From: Gemmatimonadota bacterium
GTDB lineage: Bacteria > Gemmatimonadota > Gemmatimonadetes > Palauibacterales > Palauibacteraceae
Direction of reading: 5' to 3'
Assembly: GCA_022820995.1 (NCBI GenBank)
Contig: JAJEEM010000039.1
Coordinates: forward strand, 20,203 to 84,202
Length of the DNA stretch: 64,000 nucleotides
Made by a program: the position numbers and the translations under genes. Positions 4,269-13,787 of the stretch are shown one piece after another (the stretch's first letter is position 1; the number at the start of each line of letters is the position of its first letter). The notes beneath the pieces were generated by a model. That model ran no database searches, was not told where the DNA came from, and saw only the letters and a program-made list of their open reading frames with translations.

Positions 4269-4352
4269 GCCGGAGTGGCGGAACTGGCAGACGCGCCGGA
4301 CTCAAAATCCGGTGGGAGCAATCCCTTGAGGGTTCGAGTCCCTCCTCCGGCA
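4269..4352 (+). tRNA. tRNA-Leu(CAA), CCA not encoded
   Basis: GCCGGAG/CTCCGGC acceptor stem, D-arm GGCGGAACTGGCAGACGC, anticodon arm CCGGA-CT-CAA-AA-TCCGG, long variable arm, GGTTCGAGTCC T-arm. Confidence 0.97.
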
Positions 4353-5376: not shown

Positions 5377-5432
5377 AGCGCGGGCGTCGACTCATTCCTC
5401 AAACGCCGGACCGCGCGCGGGTGTCTATTCCT

Positions 5433-5470
5433 TGCGCCCACGAAGCATCACTGCGCCCACGAGGCACCAC
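5433..5470. repeat. 19-bp tandem duplication (2 copies, 2 mismatches)
   Basis: TGCGCCCACGAAGCATCAC followed by TGCGCCCACGAGGCACCAC. Confidence 0.8.
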
Positions 5471-5491
5471 CACAGTCAGGAGCCGCGAATC

Positions 5492-8400
5492 ATGCTGAAG
5501 CGCGCCTTTCTCCCCGTCGTCTTCGCGACAATCGTCCTCCCGGTCTCCGCGACCGCCCAGGAGGCCGTGGCCGATGAGGATTTCATGGCCGAGATGGAAT
5601 GGCGTTCCATCGGCCCCGCGAACATGGCCGGGCGGGTGACGGACATCGAAGGGATCCCGGGCACCGGCACGTTCTTCATCGCCGGCGCGACGAGCGGGAT
5701 CTGGAAGACGACGAACAACGGGACGACCTACCGGCCCGTCTTCGACAACGAGCGGGTCATCTCGATGGGCGACCTCGCGATCGCGCCGAGCAACCCCGAC
5801 ATCGTCTGGGCGGGCACCGGCGAGGAGGACTCGCGCAACTCGATCTCGCCCGGAGGCGGCATCTACAAGTCCGTCGACGGCGGGCTCACGTGGGAGCTGA
5901 AGGGGCTCGAGGACACGCAGGCGATCGGCCGCATCGTCGTCCACCCGACGAAGGCGGACTGGGTGTACGTCGCCGCGCTCGGGCACCCCTGGGGGGCCAA
6001 CGAGGAGCGCGGGCTGTACCGCACGACGGACGGCGGCGACACCTGGGAGCGGATCAACTTCGTCTCCGAGGACGCCGGCTTCGTCGACATCGACATGCAC
6101 CCGCAGAATCCGGACATCCTGTGGGCGACGAGCTGGGAGCGCGTGCGCGGCCCGTACTTCTTCAACAGCGGCGGCCCGGGTAGCGCGATCTGGAAGTCCA
6201 CCGACGCCGGCGACACGTGGGAGAAGGTGGAGGGCAACGGCCTCCCCGAGACCATGCTGGGGCGGCTCGAGATCGCGATCGCGCCGAGCTACCCGCAGGT
6301 CATGTACGCGATGGTCGAGGCGGAGGCTCCGGAGGAGGCGGATGAAGACGGGAATCGCCACGCCTCCGGTCTGTACCGCTCCGCCGACGGCGGCGAGACG
6401 TGGGAGTTCAGGAATTCGAACAACTCCCGGCCCTTCTACTATTCCGGCGTCTGGGTGTCGCCGGACGACCCCGACTTCATCTACTGGTCGTCCCTCTTCT
6501 TTTCCCGGGACGGGGGCCGCACCGTCGGGAACCCGGCCCAGGGCGTGCACGTCGACTATCACGCACTGTGGTGGGATCCGACGAATCCGGACCACTTCAT
6601 ACTGGGCAACGACGGCGGAATCGCGATCACGTGGGACCGGGGCGGAAACTTCGAGTTCCCCAACCGCATTCCCATGGGTCAGTTCTATGCGGTCAGCTAC
6701 AACATGGACACGCCGTACCGCGTCTGCGGCGGCCTGCAGGACAACTATACGTGGTGCGGGCCGAGCGCACGCGCCGGGGGCTCGATCGACAATCACATGT
6801 GGTATTCGATCGGGGGCGGCGACGGCTTCTACGCGCCGCAGGATCCCACGAACCCGGACATCGTTTTCGGCGAATCGCAGCAGGGGCGGATCTACTGGCG
6901 GAACACGCGCACGGGCGAGCGGCACCAGCTGCAGCATCCGGACTGGCGCGAGCGGACGCAGACGCTGCGCGACTCGATCGCGATCCTGACGGGGGACGAC
7001 CCCGACAACCCGCCGGCGGGCAACGTGGCGCAGATCGAGGAGTTGCAGGCCCTCGTCGCGCAGGACTCCGCGCTGTACGACATGCGGTTCAACTGGAATA
7101 CGCCGCTCGAACTGTCGCCGCACGATCCGCAGACGCTGTACATCGGGGCGAACCGTGTCCTGAAGTGGACGTACGACACCGATGAGATGACGCCGATTTC
7201 GGACGACCTCACGTACGCGGACCCGGAGAAGATCGAGATCGCGTACAACACGACGGGCGGCATCACGCCGGACGTCACCGGGGCGGAGAACTTCGCGACG
7301 ATCGTCTCGCTCGCCGAATCGAAGCTCAACGAGGGCGAACTCTACGCGGGGACGGACGATGGCCGCGTGTGGCGGACGCCCGAGGGGGCGGAGTGGATCG
7401 AACTCACGGATCGCTTCGACGGTGTCCCGGAGGGGACGTACGTGAGCCGGATCGAGGCCTCGAGCCATGACCCGAACCGCTTCTACGTGACGTTCGACAA
7501 CCACCGGCGCGACGACTACACGCCGTACGTCTACGTGACGGACGACGCCGGCGAGAGCTTCCGCTCGATCTCGTCGAACCTCCCGACCGGGGCGCCGGAC
7601 TTCGTGCACGTGGTCCGGGAAGACCCGGTGAACCCGGATCTCCTCTTCGTGGGGACGGACGTGGGGGCCTACGTGTCGACGGACCGGGGCGGCTCGTGGA
7701 CGCGCTTCATGAACGGGCTGCCCACGGTGCCGGTCCACGATCTGAAGATCCATCCGCGCGAGAGCGAGATCATCGCCGGAACGCACGGGCGCTCCATCTT
7801 CGTGGCGGACATCTCGCTCCTGCAGCAACTCGACGGCGGACGCCTGCCCGAGGCCGTGACGGTGTTCCAGCCGAAGACGGCGATCCAGTTCGGAGATCCG
7901 CCGGTGGGCGGCGAGTTCATCGCGCAGAGCACGTTCCAGGCGGACGCGGGGAGCTACGGCGCCGAGATCTCCTACTACGTCCCGGAGGATGTCGCCGAAG
8001 CGCTCGCCGAGGCGGCCGAGGAGGAGGCGGAAGAAGAAGGGGCAGAAGAAGAAGGGGCAGAAGAAGAAGAGGCGGCCGAGGAAGAGGACGAGGAGGCCGA
8101 AGCGGAGGCTCCGGGCGCCGCGGCGCAGGCCGCCTTCGCGATGCGCGGGGGCATGGCGGCGGCACGGGGCGGAAACCGTCCGCAGGCCTCGATCGCGATC
8201 CTGAACGCGGCGGGAGACACCGTGCAGACGATGAACGGGTCGGCCTCGGCCGGCGTGCAGCGCGTGCGGTGGACGTTCAACCGGCGGGCCGCGCCGCGGG
8301 AGCCGTCGCCCGCGGATCGGCTGGACAGCCTGCGCACCGCCCGGCTCTACCAGACGGTGGGAGACTCGCTGGTCGAGCATGAGGGTGTCGCGCGGGAGAC

Positions 8401-8854
8401 GATGGACCAGGTGCTCGACATGATGCAGGGCGGCAACCAGGGCGCGATCATGCGCATGTTCACCGGCGGCGGCGGCGGTGGTGCCGGGGCCGGCGGTTGG
8501 CAGGAGAGGCCGGCGGAGCGCTACCCCCAGCCGGGGCAGGGGGGGCAGGGCGGAGGCCGGGGAGGGGGCCGCACCGCGGCCATGGCTGCCGCTGCGGCCG
8601 CCCGGAGCGGCGCCGATCCGGCGGCGATGCGCGAGGTCTTCCAGCAGGTGGGCGAAGCCATCCGCGACAGGGGCGGGATGTCCGTGATGCGTCGCTTCTT
8701 CGGCGGCGGCGGCGGCGGGGGCGGCCTGGCCGATCCCGGGACGTACACCGTGGCGATCACGATCGGCGACGAAACCCATACCATCCCGCTCGAGGTAGTG
8801 CGGAAGGACGGCTTCGGGTTCTGGGACGAGCCCGACGGAGAGAACGACCGCTAG
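5492..8854 (+). CDS. Secreted BNR/Asp-box (VPS10/sortilin-like) beta-propeller protein
   Basis: CAGGAG RBS before ATG 5492; signal peptide; repeated (S/T)xDGGxTW boxes; WRSIGPANMAGRV opening motif. Confidence 0.85.
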   Translation: MLKRAFLPVVFATIVLPVSATAQEAVADEDFMAEMEWRSIGPANMAGRVTDIEGIPGTGTFFIAGATSGIWKTTNNGTTYRPVFDNERVISMGDLAIAPSNPDIVWAGTGEEDSRNSISPGGGIYKSVDGGLTWELKGLEDTQAIGRIVVHPTKADWVYVAALGHPWGANEERGLYRTTDGGDTWERINFVSEDAGFVDIDMHPQNPDILWATSWERVRGPYFFNSGGPGSAIWKSTDAGDTWEKVEGNGLPETMLGRLEIAIAPSYPQVMYAMVEAEAPEEADEDGNRHASGLYRSADGGETWEFRNSNNSRPFYYSGVWVSPDDPDFIYWSSLFFSRDGGRTVGNPAQGVHVDYHALWWDPTNPDHFILGNDGGIAITWDRGGNFEFPNRIPMGQFYAVSYNMDTPYRVCGGLQDNYTWCGPSARAGGSIDNHMWYSIGGGDGFYAPQDPTNPDIVFGESQQGRIYWRNTRTGERHQLQHPDWRERTQTLRDSIAILTGDDPDNPPAGNVAQIEELQALVAQDSALYDMRFNWNTPLELSPHDPQTLYIGANRVLKWTYDTDEMTPISDDLTYADPEKIEIAYNTTGGITPDVTGAENFATIVSLAESKLNEGELYAGTDDGRVWRTPEGAEWIELTDRFDGVPEGTYVSRIEASSHDPNRFYVTFDNHRRDDYTPYVYVTDDAGESFRSISSNLPTGAPDFVHVVREDPVNPDLLFVGTDVGAYVSTDRGGSWTRFMNGLPTVPVHDLKIHPRESEIIAGTHGRSIFVADISLLQQLDGGRLPEAVTVFQPKTAIQFGDPPVGGEFIAQSTFQADAGSYGAEISYYVPEDVAEALAEAAEEEAEEEGAEEEGAEEEEAAEEEDEEAEAEAPGAAAQAAFAMRGGMAAARGGNRPQASIAILNAAGDTVQTMNGSASAGVQRVRWTFNRRAAPREPSPADRLDSLRTARLYQTVGDSLVEHEGVARETMDQVLDMMQGGNQGAIMRMFTGGGGGGAGAGGWQERPAERYPQPGQGGQGGGRGGGRTAAMAAAAAARSGADPAAMREVFQQVGEAIRDRGGMSVMRRFFGGGGGGGGLADPGTYTVAITIGDETHTIPLEVVRKDGFGFWDEPDGENDR
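8027..8071 (+). repeat. 15-bp in-frame tandem repeat x3 encoding AEEEG/AEEEG/AEEEE
   Basis: GCGGAAGAAGAAGGG, GCAGAAGAAGAAGGG, GCAGAAGAAGAAGAG. Confidence 0.85.
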
Positions 8855-8963: not shown

Positions 8964-10274
8964 ATGATGACGAACAGAGAGGGAAGCGACGCGTCGATCC
9001 TGGAGAAGATCCGGAAGCGGCGCATGGTCCAGATCGCGCTCGTGTATGTGGGCGCGGCCTGGCTCGGCGTGGAGATCACCGACTTCATCGTCGGGACCTA
9101 CGCGTTTTCGAGAAAGGTCCTGGACACGGTCGTTTTCCTCGCCATCCTCGGCTTCCCCGCCTTTCTCATCATCGGCTGGTATCACGGCGAGCGCGGCCCC
9201 CAGCGCGTCCGCCGGGCGGAAGCCTGGCTCCTGGTCACGCTGGTCACGCTGGGCGCGATCGGCACTTACCGGATCGCGACCGCCGAACCGGAAGCCGGGG
9301 GAGGCGGGGAGATGGCGGCGCCCGCCGTGATCGCGGACGGTGTGGACCGCAGCGGAGACGCGGTGAGCTTCGCGGGTTCGGCGCCCGATCTGGGTCCGAA
9401 CTCGCTCGCGGTCCTGCCCTTCCGCAACAACGTGCCCGACCCGGAACTCGAGTGGCTCGGTTCGGGACTCGCGGACCTGCTCACGACGAACCTGGCGCAA
9501 CTCCCTGATCTGCTCGTCGTCGGTCGGCAGAGCCTTTACGACCTCATCACGGAGGGGGGACTCTCCGAGGAGGAGGAGATACCCGAGTCGCTGGCGCTGA
9601 CCGTCGCCCGCGGCGCCGGCGCCCGGCTGCTGCTATGGGGGAGCGTCACGGGGGCCGCCGGCGACATGCGCATCGACGCCCAACTGATCGAACTGGAGAA
9701 CGGGACGGTGGCCTCGGCCGACTTCGCGCGGGGCGGCGATGTGTTCGAACTCGTGGACACGCTCACGGCGCGTCTCGCTTCCCACCTGTCCGGCGCGCCG
9801 CCGCCGGCCGAGGTAGCTCGAATCAGCCACCTCGGCACGCGGGATCTGGAGGCGTGGGCCGCCTTCCATCACGGGAACGCCCGCGCCCGAGCCGGTGACC
9901 TCGAGGAGGCTGAGGCCTACTACGAGCGAGCGGCCGAGATCGACACGGCGTTCGCGCTCCCGTTCCTCACCGCCGTCGGCGAGTTCCGGGCGGGAGAGGC
10001 CGCATCGCCGGATGGCGAGCGAACCGAGGCCGGACGCCGACGCGCCGACTGGCGGGAACGGCGCACCGTCCAACTCCTCCACCGATTGCCGGAGGACCTG
10101 AGGCGGCAACTGGAAGGTCTGAGCGGGGACGAGTTGCGCGCCACCATCGACTCCCTGACGGGCCGCACGAGGTCCGCCGTCCGCCTCCTGTTCGGCGAAC
10201 CGCCGTCCGCCGCCACCCCGACCGACCGCCCCCCGAACCCGCCGCAGCGCCCCGAACCGGAGAATCGCCGATAG
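8964..10274 (+). CDS. Membrane protein with TolB-N/FlgO-like domain and a TPR-like repeat
   Basis: Three N-terminal TM segments; SLAVLPFRN, GLADLLTTNL, RIDAQLI motifs; TPR-like GDLEEAEAYYERAAEID. Confidence 0.75.
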   Translation: MMTNREGSDASILEKIRKRRMVQIALVYVGAAWLGVEITDFIVGTYAFSRKVLDTVVFLAILGFPAFLIIGWYHGERGPQRVRRAEAWLLVTLVTLGAIGTYRIATAEPEAGGGGEMAAPAVIADGVDRSGDAVSFAGSAPDLGPNSLAVLPFRNNVPDPELEWLGSGLADLLTTNLAQLPDLLVVGRQSLYDLITEGGLSEEEEIPESLALTVARGAGARLLLWGSVTGAAGDMRIDAQLIELENGTVASADFARGGDVFELVDTLTARLASHLSGAPPPAEVARISHLGTRDLEAWAAFHHGNARARAGDLEEAEAYYERAAEIDTAFALPFLTAVGEFRAGEAASPDGERTEAGRRRADWRERRTVQLLHRLPEDLRRQLEGLSGDELRATIDSLTGRTRSAVRLLFGEPPSAATPTDRPPNPPQRPEPENRR

Positions 10275-10285
10275 CGGCGATGATG

Positions 10286-10431
10286 ACGTCGAGCCGCGTC
10301 GCCGCTGGATCGAGACGTGGTTCGCTCGGCAAGAGTGAATTGCGGGGCAACGACGCGGAGGGCGACGCAGTCCCGAAGATCGGAGGGGAATTCCGCTGCG
10401 AACTTCGGCATCGCGACACGCGGCTCGACGT
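10286..10431. repeat. 146-bp element bounded by a perfect 14-bp inverted repeat, folds as a long imperfect hairpin
   Basis: ACGTCGAGCCGCGT (10286-10299) is the reverse complement of ACGCGGCTCGACGT (10418-10431); inner GTTCGC/GCGAAC and GAATT/AATTC pairs. Confidence 0.75.
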
Positions 10432-10433
10432 GA

Positions 10434-12185
10434 TTACGTGATGGCCGACCGTCGGTGCGCGGGCATCGAGGCGACGACGACCTCGCGGCGGGCGGCGTCC
10501 CAGAAATAGTAGATTCGCAGACAGCGGCGCGGATCCCGCGTGTTCCCGCCGTTCTTCAGGTGCCATTCGACGCGGTGTCTCTCGCCGCGCCAATCGAAGT
10601 CGAAGCTGTCACCGCCGCACCGTTGGTTGCGGATGCCGGCCGCGAGCCCCGGGATCATGCCATAAAGATGGCCGTCTCCACCTCCCAGGCGCGCCTCGCG
10701 ATATTCGTTGCCGAGCCAATGAAGACAGACCGACGCGAGCCCCACATCTTCGAACAGAGCCCCGTTCAGACTCCGCCGCACCGGATCCGCGAGCACGACG
10801 CGGCCCTCCAGCGTTGAGGTGCACCAGGACACGACGTCGTTCCAGTCGACCGGGAACGGTGCCTTCGGGTCTCCGCCCCGGAGCCGCACCAGTCCCTCCA
10901 GCCGTCGCGCCTCGCGCCGCGCTTCGTCGCGCTCGGTGCGCGCGGCCGCCTCCGCCTCCCGCGAGCGGTCGCGTTCTCCGGCGAGGGAGCGATTCCTCCT
11001 CCGCTCGGCCCGAAGGTCGCGCTTTGCCGCGGAGAGTTCGCGGCGGAGTGCCTCCGCATCCTGGTCCGCCGCCGTCTTTCCCGCCGCCTCCGCGGTCGTC
11101 CGTTCCGGGACCGTATCTCGGACGGTCGGTGCCGTGCCGCGGCGGCGGGGCACGACCCGCGCCAGCCGCCGCCACCCTCGCGCCGACAGGCTCGCCGGCC
11201 GCCTCGCAAGAGCCGGGAGGCGCGTCGCGATATCCGCCATCCGCCCCTTACCCGGATGGACGTCGTCGAACAGGATTTCGTCTGTCGGGGCGGTCCGCAG
11301 GTAGTGGTCGGCGACGATATGAAGGACCTCCTTCGTCGTTCGCTCCAGACCCTCGTCCGTTTCCGACCGTTCCCTCAGATACACCGGGTGGTCGGAGCGC
11401 TGGGCGTGCCGGCCGAACCCCGGCAGGTAGATTCGCCAGGCTCCGTCGTACACGGAGAACGCCTTGGTAACCGTATCGCTCAGTGTGTAGGTGAACTGCT
11501 TCGGGAGTACCGTGACGGTAGCCAGTCCGGTCAGGGCGGTGGCGACCCTTCGCGCGCGAACCAGGACGGCGTTGACGTCGTCTCCGACCGTCGGTTCGGT
11601 GATGGCGACGACCGGCAGGGGACGTCCCGGGTCCAGCAGGTCCTCGACGAATTCCTGCATGGCGGCGGGGGTCCAGACGGCGCCGGGCTCGCGGACCAGC
11701 GGTGCGCCACCCTGAAACAGGCGGACGCCCGCACCGATGTCGAACAGGACACCGGGAGGCAGGGTCTCGGCAGGCTGCAGGGACGATGCGGGCCAGGATG
11801 GGACCCGGACTCCGACCACGGGCGGTCGCTCGCCGCCGGGAGCGGCCACGACGATTTCGGTCACCGCCTCGTATTCGGCACGGGCGTCCAGCATGATGCG
11901 GGCGGCCCAGAAGTCGCCCCGTCGGCTCTTATCGCGCACCACGCGGCACTGCGACGCTCCATCGGACAATTCAAACGATCGGTGCCGGAGCGCCCGCAGG
12001 GGCAGATCTCGGCCCACGCGCCGCCCCACCCATTCCAGCGCCGCGTCCCGGCATTGGCGGAGGGCCGGGCGGCTGTCGATCCCGTTCCCGATCCGAGCCG
12101 TCACGTGCAGCCCGCGACCCCTCGCGGCGAGTTCCCGATTTCCCAGCTCCGCGAACGACCCGAAGCCGGACTTTCGAGTTCCCAT
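10434..12185 (-). CDS. Hypothetical 583-aa protein: globular middle domain, coiled coil, C-terminal possible RelE/YoeB-like domain
   Basis: Long ORF; start placed at ATG 12185 after a GGAGAAGAG RBS; C-terminal EWHLKNGGNTRDPRRCLRIYYFWD..VVVASMPAH. Confidence 0.75.
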   Translation of the reverse strand: MGTRKSGFGSFAELGNRELAARGRGLHVTARIGNGIDSRPALRQCRDAALEWVGRRVGRDLPLRALRHRSFELSDGASQCRVVRDKSRRGDFWAARIMLDARAEYEAVTEIVVAAPGGERPPVVGVRVPSWPASSLQPAETLPPGVLFDIGAGVRLFQGGAPLVREPGAVWTPAAMQEFVEDLLDPGRPLPVVAITEPTVGDDVNAVLVRARRVATALTGLATVTVLPKQFTYTLSDTVTKAFSVYDGAWRIYLPGFGRHAQRSDHPVYLRERSETDEGLERTTKEVLHIVADHYLRTAPTDEILFDDVHPGKGRMADIATRLPALARRPASLSARGWRRLARVVPRRRGTAPTVRDTVPERTTAEAAGKTAADQDAEALRRELSAAKRDLRAERRRNRSLAGERDRSREAEAAARTERDEARREARRLEGLVRLRGGDPKAPFPVDWNDVVSWCTSTLEGRVVLADPVRRSLNGALFEDVGLASVCLHWLGNEYREARLGGGDGHLYGMIPGLAAGIRNQRCGGDSFDFDWRGERHRVEWHLKNGGNTRDPRRCLRIYYFWDAARREVVVASMPAHRRSAIT

Positions 12186-12327
12186 CACTCTCTTCTCCGA
12201 AGCATCCCCGGAAGATCGGGTCGGGAGCCGTGCCGGGAAATGGCCCGATTCCGTTTCTCCAGCTTGATGCGTGCTCCCGATGACGGCACGTTGAGAAATG
12301 CCGGGAGGTTCGCGGTGGGTGTCGGCG

Positions 12328-12507
12328 ATGGCGTTTGAAATGGATACTCTGACAATTCTGATCGTCGTGCTGGCCATCTTCGTCGCGTACGCTGCGCTGG
12401 CTGCGTTGATCCTGCGTGCCATACGAAGGGTTGAGAAGAGGATCGACAGCTTCTTGGCGACGATCGATGGCATGAAGGCTGGCTGCCGTGCTGGACGAAC
12501 TCCGTGA
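12328..12507 (+). CDS. Small single-TM protein (59 aa, start uncertain)
   Basis: Hydrophobic LTILIVVLAIFVAYAALAALIL followed by basic amphipathic RAIRRVEKRIDSF; AT-richer codons. Confidence 0.5.
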   Translation: MAFEMDTLTILIVVLAIFVAYAALAALILRAIRRVEKRIDSFLATIDGMKAGCRAGRTP

Positions 12508-12620
12508 TGACGGCCATGTTTCGAGGGTCATTGTCGGAACATGTGCGTAGTCGCATCCGAAGCATGGGCGGGCGCCGCCTCCCCGCGGCGGTGGCGTCCT
12601 CGGAACCTCAGGGAGGCCAC

Positions 12621-13787
12621 ATGAAGCGAAGGGCGTTTCTCCGAACCGGACTCACGGGCGCCGGCGTTGCCGGCATCGCCGCCGCACCCCTTGCCGCACC
12701 CCTCGCGGGCGCGACGGCGGCGCGCGGCCTCGACACCATCTTCAACCCCCGCCGGCCGGGACGCGACTACAACGGCCCCGTCCGGCTGAGTTCGAACGAG
12801 AACCCGCTCGGCATCGCCCCGTCCGCCCGGCAGGCGATTGTCGATGGGCTCGACGAGGCGAACCGCTATCCCGGCGCGACCGGCGAACTCGTGCGCGAGG
12901 CGCTCGTCGCGCGGCTCGGCGTCAAGCCCGGCCAGCTCTTCTTCGGCTCCGGATCGACCGAGATCCTCCGCATCGCCTCGGCGGCCTGGGCGGCGCCCGG
13001 CGGCCGCCTCATCTACGCGGAGCCGACGTACGAGGACGTGCCCAGGTACTCGCAGCCGTTCGCCTACGACCACATCACGGTTCCGCTCACGAGCGACTAC
13101 GCGCATGACATCGATCGCATGCGCGAAGAGGCCTCGAAGTCGTCCGCGCCGAGCGTGATCTACTTCTGCAACCCGAACAACCCGACCGGCACGCTCACCG
13201 CGACCGGGCCGATCATGGACTGGATCCGGGACGAGGGCGAGCAGCACCTCTTCCTCGTCGACGAGGCGTACTTCGAACTCGCGGACGACCCCGGCTACGA
13301 GACCTTCGTCCCGCTCATCGAGCGTCATCCGAACCTGATCGTCGCCCGCACCTTCTCCAAGGTGTACGCGATGGCCGGGATTCGCCTGGGCTACGGGATC
13401 GCGCACGAGGCCACGGTCCAGCGCGTCCTCCCGTTCGCGACTCGGAACGCCCCCAACCACGTGGCGGGCGTGGCCGCCGTCGCCTCGCTCGCCGACGATG
13501 AGTTCTTCGAGAAGAGCGTGAAGACGAACGACGAGGCGAAGGCGATGATGTACGATGCCCTCGGCCAGCTCGACATCGAGGTCCTGCCGAGCCACACGAA
13601 CTTCATCATGCACCGGATCAAGGGCGAACTCGCGACCTACAACGAGCGGATGTTCGAGGCCGGGTTCAACGTGGGCCGCCCGTTCCCGCCGATGACGGAC
13701 TGGAGCCGGCTCTCGATGGGTCTCCCGTCGGACATGGAGAAGCTCGCCGAAGTCATGATGGACTTCCGCAGGAAGGACTGGATCTAG
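12621..13787 (+). CDS. HisC-like class I/II PLP aminotransferase with Tat signal
   Basis: GGGAGG RBS, MKRRAFLRT Tat motif; LSSNENP, CNPNNPTG, VDEAY, RTFSKVYAMAGIRLGY. Confidence 0.88.
   Translation: MKRRAFLRTGLTGAGVAGIAAAPLAAPLAGATAARGLDTIFNPRRPGRDYNGPVRLSSNENPLGIAPSARQAIVDGLDEANRYPGATGELVREALVARLGVKPGQLFFGSGSTEILRIASAAWAAPGGRLIYAEPTYEDVPRYSQPFAYDHITVPLTSDYAHDIDRMREEASKSSAPSVIYFCNPNNPTGTLTATGPIMDWIRDEGEQHLFLVDEAYFELADDPGYETFVPLIERHPNLIVARTFSKVYAMAGIRLGYGIAHEATVQRVLPFATRNAPNHVAGVAAVASLADDEFFEKSVKTNDEAKAMMYDALGQLDIEVLPSHTNFIMHRIKGELATYNERMFEAGFNVGRPFPPMTDWSRLSMGLPSDMEKLAEVMMDFRRKDWI

Follow-up and report, generated by a model that had tools for sequence, protein, structure and literature searches.

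A HEC-07 family gene with a candidate RelE-like effector domain lies in a sharply bounded divergent block at a housekeeping locus of Candidatus Palauibacter relatives

We describe a gene on contig JAJEEM010000039.1 of a Gemmatimonadota bacterium (assembly GCA_022820995.1) and assign it to HEC-07, a family of single-protein anti-phage systems. The window is the whole stretch of 64,000 nt that was analysed, and all positions refer to it. The gene lies on the minus strand at 10434..12185, runs from an ATG start at 12183-12185 to a TAA stop at 10434-10436, and encodes 583 aa. It is convergent with a 436-aa TPR/CsgG-like gene (8964-10274) and divergent from both a 69-aa small open reading frame (ORF; 12298-12507) and an aminotransferase gene. 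The ORF listing thus bears out a preliminary description of this DNA, which had placed the gene opposite to its neighbours. Within ~10 kb, one side also carries genes for an amidase, a beta-lactamase-fold hydrolase, a tRNA-Leu, a 3-hydroxyacyl-CoA dehydrogenase and a sortilin/BNR protein, and on the other side the small ORF and the aminotransferase are joined by genes for an enoyl-CoA hydratase and a resistance-nodulation-division (RND) efflux pump. The gene order around the HEC-07 gene is common to three related assemblies, which we denote by the handles of their loci (L002/L006, L003/L007 and L008).

The 583-aa ORF is a real, intact gene. The longest form of the minus-strand ORF ending at 10434 has 679 aa and extends up to 12473; the start at 12185 is the one shared with the starts of nine close homologues (59-92% identity, 509-611 aa), one of which is named 'Candidatus Palauibacter sp.', and a GGAG is found ~10 nt upstream of this ATG. 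The guanine-plus-cytosine (GC) content of the ORF is 70.0%, compared with 70.1% for the window, which puts it at the 45th percentile among same-sized windows, and its 60-mers have a mean of 70% GC and span 55-85%. The preliminary description was mistaken in giving the gene a lower GC content (~55-62%) than its flanks; only the GC content at third codon positions is somewhat lower, at 0.81 versus 0.86-0.93 in five neighbours. A second copy (paralogue) of the gene was not found in the window, and neither a sigma-70-like promoter nor a convincing terminator was found around it.

The protein had been thought to belong to an undescribed system that matched no named defence system. The PADLOC search that the preliminary description had proposed gives instead a strong match to a defence family: against PADLOC-DB, the ORF matches the HEC-07 model PDLC04161 in two stretches (E = 1.8e-103, 345 bits), of which the C-terminal one pairs residues 354-582 with profile positions 311-552 of 553. 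PADLOC-DB holds four HEC-07 models (PDLC04158-04161), and the three further ones match the ORF at 3.5e-34, 1.2e-28 and 1.5e-18. HEC-07 is one of nine 'Hma-embedded candidates' reported by Payne, Hughes, Fineran & Jackson (bioRxiv 2024, 10.1101/2024.01.29.577857), and it is among the seven of these nine that lowered coliphage plaquing when expressed in Escherichia coli. The system consists of one gene, was cloned in that form and takes up a single row in Table S2 of that work; the tested protein is WP_033943166.1 of Pseudomonas aeruginosa NCTC13717, with 549 aa (10.1101/2024.01.29.577857). The authors describe an AdoMetDC-like N-terminal domain, a thioredoxin-like domain that lacks the CxxC motif, and a C-terminal domain that resembles HP0892 (PDB 4LTT), a toxin of the RelE family, and carries a conserved histidine, H543 (10.1101/2024.01.29.577857).

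The first 399 aa of the tested P. aeruginosa protein also have PDLC04161 as their best PADLOC match (1e-150), and their alignment with the window protein covers its residues 47-401 at 27.7% identity (E = 1e-13). Homology spans both the N- and C-terminal parts, because the N-terminal part of the tested protein aligns and the PADLOC model covers the C-terminal part. On these comparisons of sequence, membership of the ORF in the HEC-07 single-protein anti-phage family is secure. The two proteins share their best hidden Markov model, their one-gene build and their size class (583 versus 549 aa), and they are alike in having a thioredoxin-like middle without CxxC, a helical linker, a conserved C-terminal domain and a histidine seventh from the end. 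They differ in their hosts, the window gene belonging to a Gemmatimonadota lineage (Candidatus Palauibacter), and in their settings: the window gene is not embedded in an Hma or restriction-modification (RM) system but is a hyper-divergent allele at a conserved housekeeping locus. HEC-07 was discovered through its embedding in Hma or further multi-gene defence systems; the window gene shows no such embedding, and PADLOC's system definition does not require it. Other searches were less informative. Pfam returned nothing at E<=1 for the full protein and NCBIfam likewise gave nothing useful, and a word-indexed search for homologues of the N-terminal 312 aa yielded nothing more. An amanitin match at E = 0.02, from the Pfam/NCBIfam scan of the whole protein, was dismissed as chance.

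We modeled the protein with AlphaFold2 (AF2). A first model was confident for the C-terminal domain and poor for the N-terminal half; a model built on 69 diverse family members has a mean pLDDT (predicted local distance difference test) score of 85.2. According to this model, the protein is built of four parts, all encoded on the minus strand. An N-terminal alpha/beta domain (residues ~26-128, 11802..12110, pLDDT 82-97) has predicted strands at 26-32, 71-74, 78-87, 90-100, 106-116 and 123-128; it is the most variable folded domain, with 50-62% identity to orthologues, and is presumed to be the sensor part. It is followed by a thioredoxin-like domain without cysteine (residues ~143-300, 11286..11759), which was recognized with Foldseek. 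When the full-length model was compared with the PDB, thioredoxins were at the top (2ppt, E = 2.2e-3, probability 1.00), with 3vfi, the thioredoxin entry used by Payne et al. (10.1101/2024.01.29.577857), at rank 36, and the viral library gave a thioredoxin-like picture again. The fold of residues ~143-300 matches thioredoxins (2PPT, 3VFI) with template-modeling scores of 0.47-0.67 to the target, but the window domain is only 8-16% identical to them and lacks CxxC, which makes them relatives in fold only. Residues 136-300 contain no cysteine at all, and because both the CxxC motif and every cysteine are missing, the domain is redox-dead; it is not a redox enzyme but presumably a scaffold or binding domain.

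The third part consists of a variable linker (residues 301-371, 11073..11285), predicted to be disordered from ~330, and a single long charged helix. The linker has pLDDT values below 50 at 337-370, is 33-42% identical to orthologues, and differs in length across the family. The helix comprises 64 residues (372-435, 10881..11072, pLDDT ~90) and may form a coiled coil or a stalk for dimerisation; when the full-length alignment was used as a profile against PDB sequences, the only matches were coiled-coil noise arising from this helix. The fourth part is a conserved C-terminal domain, the candidate effector (residues 445-583, 10437..10853, pLDDT 81-97), which is 80-90% identical to orthologues. 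In the model it is compact (445-575), with a helix at 448-458, a strand at 463-465 and helices at 467-475 and 481-500, followed by six strands, the last three of which are 541-545 (WHLKN), 557-563 (RIYYFWD) and 568-573 (EVVVAS). The globular middle, the coiled coil and the three final strands, which had been described from the sequence, all have their counterparts in the model.

Conservation picks out residues in each of the folded domains. W93, R188, W454, R557, Y559, P575 and H577 are invariant across the 69 family members, and the nearly invariant positions include E110, G248, R251, Y253, H266, H542 and K544. H577 is invariant in both the 69-sequence and a 40-sequence alignment; as residue 577 of 583 it is the seventh from the C-terminal end, as is H543 in the 549-aa tested protein.

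We now turn to the distribution of the family. When 1.84 billion representative proteins were searched with a profile, 2143 relatives were found at E<=1e-3; 1034 proteins reach E<=1e-10 and 270 reach E<=1e-30. Most have 530-600 aa, and a single relative was found among 2.9 million viral contigs. Many C-domain-only proteins of 150-250 aa suggested a stand-alone toxin form; this was rejected, as two that were checked proved to be fragments: an insertion sequence (IS) element cuts one of them short, and small ORFs precede the other, which comes from a nanopore assembly. When one genome per species was scanned for motifs, relatives lay in 218 stretches, and 80 loci were kept. Gemmatimonadota account for 54 of the 80, and the remainder are from Alpha-, Beta- and Gammaproteobacteria, Acidobacteriota, Desulfovibrio, Verrucomicrobia, Binatia and Streptomycetaceae. 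Several metagenome-assembled genomes carry two HEC-07 copies, on different contigs.

The genes around HEC-07 differ sharply between these groups. We compared neighbours within 6 kb by the PADLOC families that they match. The 97 neighbour proteins at 12 Longimicrobiales loci match only 7 PADLOC families at E<=1e-10, whereas the 119 neighbour proteins at 14 loci from other phyla match 283, and among the latter the type I RM specificity, methylase and restriction-subunit models are each matched by 5-7 of the 119. A Thiomonas bhubaneswarensis island has the order hsdM-hsdS-DUF3800-HEC07-hsdR (in the pair L069:6280-14726 / L080:4734-14774), and Pseudoxanthomonas suwonensis carries much of it, with HsdM 91%, HEC-07 85% and HsdR 92% identical and HsdS only 34% identical; DUF3800 has no match in the P. 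suwonensis island. These identities point to a recent transfer, between bacterial classes, of an RM system with an embedded HEC-07 gene. Of the metagenomic members, P0071 has an N6_N4_Mtase gene and a gene for a ResIII fragment as neighbours, and a second one is found in a prophage-like stretch.

Within Gemmatimonadota, a second syntenic locus is found in ~26 Longimicrobiales genomes, with the order S10 peptidase, EamA transporter, GNAT, HEC-07, S9 peptidase and TonB receptor. An example is L013:6604-18688 (with ~25 others among L016-L061), where the S9 prolyl oligopeptidase gene is convergent with HEC-07. Even at this fixed position HEC-07 is the least conserved gene, with 39-72% identity versus 67-92% for the flanks.

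The same pattern is seen at the locus in the window. Sliding nucleotide identity to L003, the nearest relative, is 54-84% inside a hyper-divergent block (10250..12245, assigned to no strand) that comprises the gene, its 3' spacer and the proximal 5' spacer, and 90-99% outside it. The edges of the block are sharp, at ~10250 and ~12245, and the 5' edge is set by a 52-nt segment (12246-12297) with 96% identity to L003. The HEC-07 protein is 62% identical to that of L003, with a nonsynonymous divergence (dN) of 0.30 and a synonymous divergence (dS) of 1.13, versus 90-98% identity, dN of 0.007-0.06 and dS of 0.13-0.26 for five flanking genes. The dS of HEC-07 is thus 5-8 times that of the flanks, and it is raised along the whole gene, including the C-domain (0.93). 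Because it is raised along the whole gene, the HEC-07 alleles are much older than their flanks, and not just subject to faster protein evolution. Such age indicates either that alleles have been replaced through recombination or that a polymorphism has been held for long, as would be expected of a gene in an arms race. Whole-gene dN/dS is 0.27-0.33 versus three orthologues, which indicates purifying selection, and constraint is graded along the protein: dN/dS is 0.11-0.21 in the C-domain, 0.22-0.32 in the thioredoxin-like domain, 0.33-0.35 in the N-domain, 0.36-0.51 in the long helix and 0.5-0.65 in the linker.

Two of the related loci differ from the window in gene content. L002, a relative with 67% identity, carries inserted genes on the side of HEC-07 that faces the aminotransferase gene (L002:1690-9771): two encode transposases, two are unknown and one encodes 580 aa. 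The 580-aa product combines SLFN_AlbA_2 and HATPase_c_4, and PADLOC pAgo-associated models match it at ~1e-14. This spot beside HEC-07 behaves as an insertion hotspot. In L003, Abi_alpha and type I HsdR genes (L003:19304-21773) lie ~8-10 kb from HEC-07, beyond the beta-lactamase-fold gene; the matching side of the window has the amidase instead.

The best explanation overall, to which we give a probability of about 70%, is that the gene encodes an anti-phage member of HEC-07, a sensor-effector protein with a RelE-like effector, resident at a fixed housekeeping locus. In the mechanism that we propose, the variable N-terminal two-domain module would sense an infection cue and would otherwise hold the C-domain inactive, in the manner of a fused toxin-antitoxin, while the long helix would probably make a dimeric stalk. 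Once triggered, the RelE-like C-domain would cut RNA, most likely mRNA on the ribosome, and the resulting arrest of translation would abort the infection. A comparable arrangement is found in CapRel, a fused toxin-antitoxin defence protein in which a variable sensor or inhibitor part controls, within one polypeptide, a conserved toxic effector that acts on translation; a gradient from variable sensor to conserved effector is seen in the window gene. The domains of the two proteins are unrelated, however, and the RelA/SpoT-type effector of CapRel modifies tRNA, so that the likeness would be mechanistic only. Anti-phage activity belongs to the P. aeruginosa homologue, in E. coli only, and is ascribed to the window allele by homology.

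Several observations weigh against this explanation, and they fall into three groups. The first concerns the evidence transferred from the family and the action of selection. The window protein is only ~28% identical to the tested HEC-07 protein over the N-terminal 350 residues, and no region of it evolves with dN/dS above 1, whether over the gene as a whole or within a domain. In addition, the preprint describes no HEC-07 mutant and reports no RNase test (10.1101/2024.01.29.577857).

The second group concerns the C-domain, for which the preliminary description had claimed a RelE/YoeB motif resemblance that finds no statistical support at the sequence level. Among 40 C-domains searched against Pfam at up to E=10, there was only one stray Toxin_YhaV match (E = 0.25), and a PDB profile search with the C-domain found no toxin. 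Compared with E. coli YafQ, RelE and YoeB, taken from the MG1655 record, hhalign gave probabilities of <=1.4%, no better than antitoxin controls, and hmmsearch scores were no better than those of shuffled sequences (2000 each; YafQ was exceeded by 329/2000). No RelE-type chain was among the Foldseek best 50 of either library, where the query was full-length, the thioredoxin-like domain filled the list and weaker matches of a small domain could not surface. The C-domain might then differ in fold or activity from RelE-type ribonucleases and be, for example, a DNase, a binding module or a ParE-like poison that is no nuclease, to which the RelE label has been loosely applied. Its size would agree with this: it has ~140 aa, ~50 more than the ~90 aa of RelE-type toxins, with three extra strands and one extra helix. 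It is also fused to a 440-residue N-terminal region, whereas such toxins have a small antitoxin gene as their partner. The window gene has no antitoxin-like neighbour; no small co-directional gene adjoins, and the sole small neighbour is the divergent ORF.

We nevertheless consider it unlikely that the C-domain is of another type. The order of RelE-type toxins is strand, helix, helix and then an antiparallel sheet of 3-4 strands, and the secondary structure predicted for the C-domain is compatible with it, with one extra helix ahead. Toxins of the RelE/YoeB/YafQ type, such as Helicobacter pylori HP0892 (PDB 4LTT/2OTR), are like the predicted C-domain in this order of one strand, two helices and antiparallel sheet, and also in having a histidine at the end of the last strand and Arg-x-Tyr on the preceding strand. 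The RNases RelE, YoeB and YafQ, which cleave mRNA on the ribosome, use residues of the His/Lys/Arg/Tyr kind, and the top-conserved His, Lys, Arg, Tyr and His of the C-domain lie on its last strands; we know of no ParE protein with such a conserved set. Because the family has been likened to HP0892 by Payne et al. (10.1101/2024.01.29.577857), and because of the compatible order and the conserved residues on the last strands, we retain a RelE-like RNase as the likely but unconfirmed identity of the C-domain. The single defence protein with sensor, helix and RelE-like effector that had been proposed from the sequence fits the published HEC-07 family, while the assignment of a RelE fold was not reproduced.

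The third group concerns the genomic setting. There is no defence gene within ~10 kb of the HEC-07 gene in the window, and 0 of 4 immediate neighbours scanned with PADLOC match. Both this gene and its ~26 Longimicrobiales orthologues occupy conserved housekeeping neighbourhoods with almost no PADLOC matches nearby. Such a setting is unusual for defence genes and would suit a domesticated one, in which case the resident gene would be kept vertically in Longimicrobiales and Palauibacter mainly for a cellular purpose, such as stress-triggered translational shutdown or RNA turnover, and less for defence against phage. The same gene position in four Palauibacter assemblies, the second syntenic locus, the scarcity of PADLOC families around Longimicrobiales copies relative to those in other phyla, and the near-absence of relatives from viral contigs would all be in keeping with such a role. 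The preliminary description had taken conserved housekeeping contexts as evidence against a defence function; these contexts are what we find in the Gemmatimonadota clade, but relatives from proteobacteria and elsewhere do not share them and have many type I RM genes around them instead.

Domestication is unlikely on the evidence of the alleles themselves. HEC-07 is always the least conserved gene of its neighbourhood, and allele turnover in an arms race fits better with a dS 5-8 times that of the flanks and with the sharp edges of the block. Mobile elements and a Schlafen/AlbA-type gene have been inserted at the same spot in L002, and the homologue that has been validated acts against phage. 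An immune gene is the better fit for old, sharply bounded divergent alleles and for insertions of transposases and a Schlafen/AlbA-type gene, and we accordingly keep an anti-phage HEC-07 protein as the preferred explanation.

Two further features adjoin the HEC-07 gene. On its 5' side, the 69-aa ORF on the plus strand (12298-12507) encodes a small transmembrane protein with a homologue in L003 (L003:9369-9773, minus strand, 134 aa; 48% identity, E = 6e-15). The start codon, the 52 nt upstream and the transmembrane segment are conserved with L003, whose protein has extra heptad-like 'KIDxVQAxLE' coiled-coil repeats. The coiled-coil part expands and contracts, because the differences between the window and L003 are in-frame indels. 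Judged by this conservation, the ORF is probably a real gene. On the 3' side, a 17-nt inverted repeat, 94% complementary and without strand (10283-10299 / 10418-10434), brackets the 159-nt spacer between the convergent genes; its stem encloses the whole spacer, and the predicted RNA fold has -69.4 kcal/mol (z = -2.9). The window has no second copy of the repeat, and L002 and L003 lack it; it does not resemble a terminator, has no T run, and Rfam finds nothing at 9500-13000.

The HEC-07 gene, the small transmembrane protein and the flanking hairpin had been suggested to work as a three-part module. The parts themselves exist: the small ORF is probably real, its L003 homologue lies at the same place, and the inverted repeat is found 3' of HEC-07. 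Their association is highly improbable. The small-gene start and the 52 nt upstream, which are 96% identical to L003, belong to the conserved flank outside the divergent block and do not co-vary with HEC-07. The small gene is also absent beside HEC-07 in L002, in L008 and at all other loci compared, its homologue being found only in L003, and it has no PADLOC or Pfam match. HEC-07 is listed, and was cloned, as a system of one gene, and only this genome has the hairpin. The small gene is consequently not linked to the HEC-07 gene, and the module is not borne out.

Elsewhere in this part of the window, the only tRNA gene of the window, tRNA-Leu (CAA), lies at 4269-4352 on the plus strand between the beta-lactamase-fold and 3-hydroxyacyl-CoA dehydrogenase genes. 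The sortilin/BNR gene (5432-8854, 1140 aa) contains, in the region 7900-8700, an acidic low-complexity Glu/Ala(/Gly) tract (AEEEAEEEGAEEEGAEEEEAAEEEDEE) followed by Gly-rich runs. Local GC content reaches up to 76% in this region, and a 1229-aa antisense shadow ORF overlaps the gene.

The HEC-07 family and its anti-phage phenotype were already known, and the ORF is not an undescribed system. What is new is that, in relatives of Candidatus Palauibacter, HEC-07 sits at the same housekeeping locus within a sharply bounded divergent block. For annotation, the ORF can be named a HEC-07 family defence-type protein, to which neither the hairpin nor the small transmembrane gene should be attached. As HEC-07 has a phenotype without a mechanism, a short list of residues is useful, namely H542, K544, R557, Y559 and H577 in the C-domain and W93, E110, R188, R251, Y253 and H266 in the N-terminal half. 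Conservation falls from the effector to the N-domain and linker, which are variable, and this gradient points to the seat of specificity; divergent alleles at one locus in close relatives are ideal for sensor swaps that map triggers.

On a wider scale, the RM-rich neighbourhoods outside Gemmatimonadota and the fixed positions in Longimicrobiales raise the question of how mobile defence genes turn into stable residents. We tentatively suggest, as a possibility well short of an even chance, that HEC-07 of Longimicrobiales is a fixed chromosomal immune locus, kept at one housekeeping position throughout an order-level clade. Its alleles would be older than the genome around them, through trans-species polymorphism or frequent swapping via homologous flanks, and its variable N-terminal sensor would track phages while the effector stays constant. 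If this were true, the gene of these sponge-, coral- and marine-associated Gemmatimonadota would be a bacterial equivalent of polymorphic immune genes that persist over long times, and not a gene of mobile islands.

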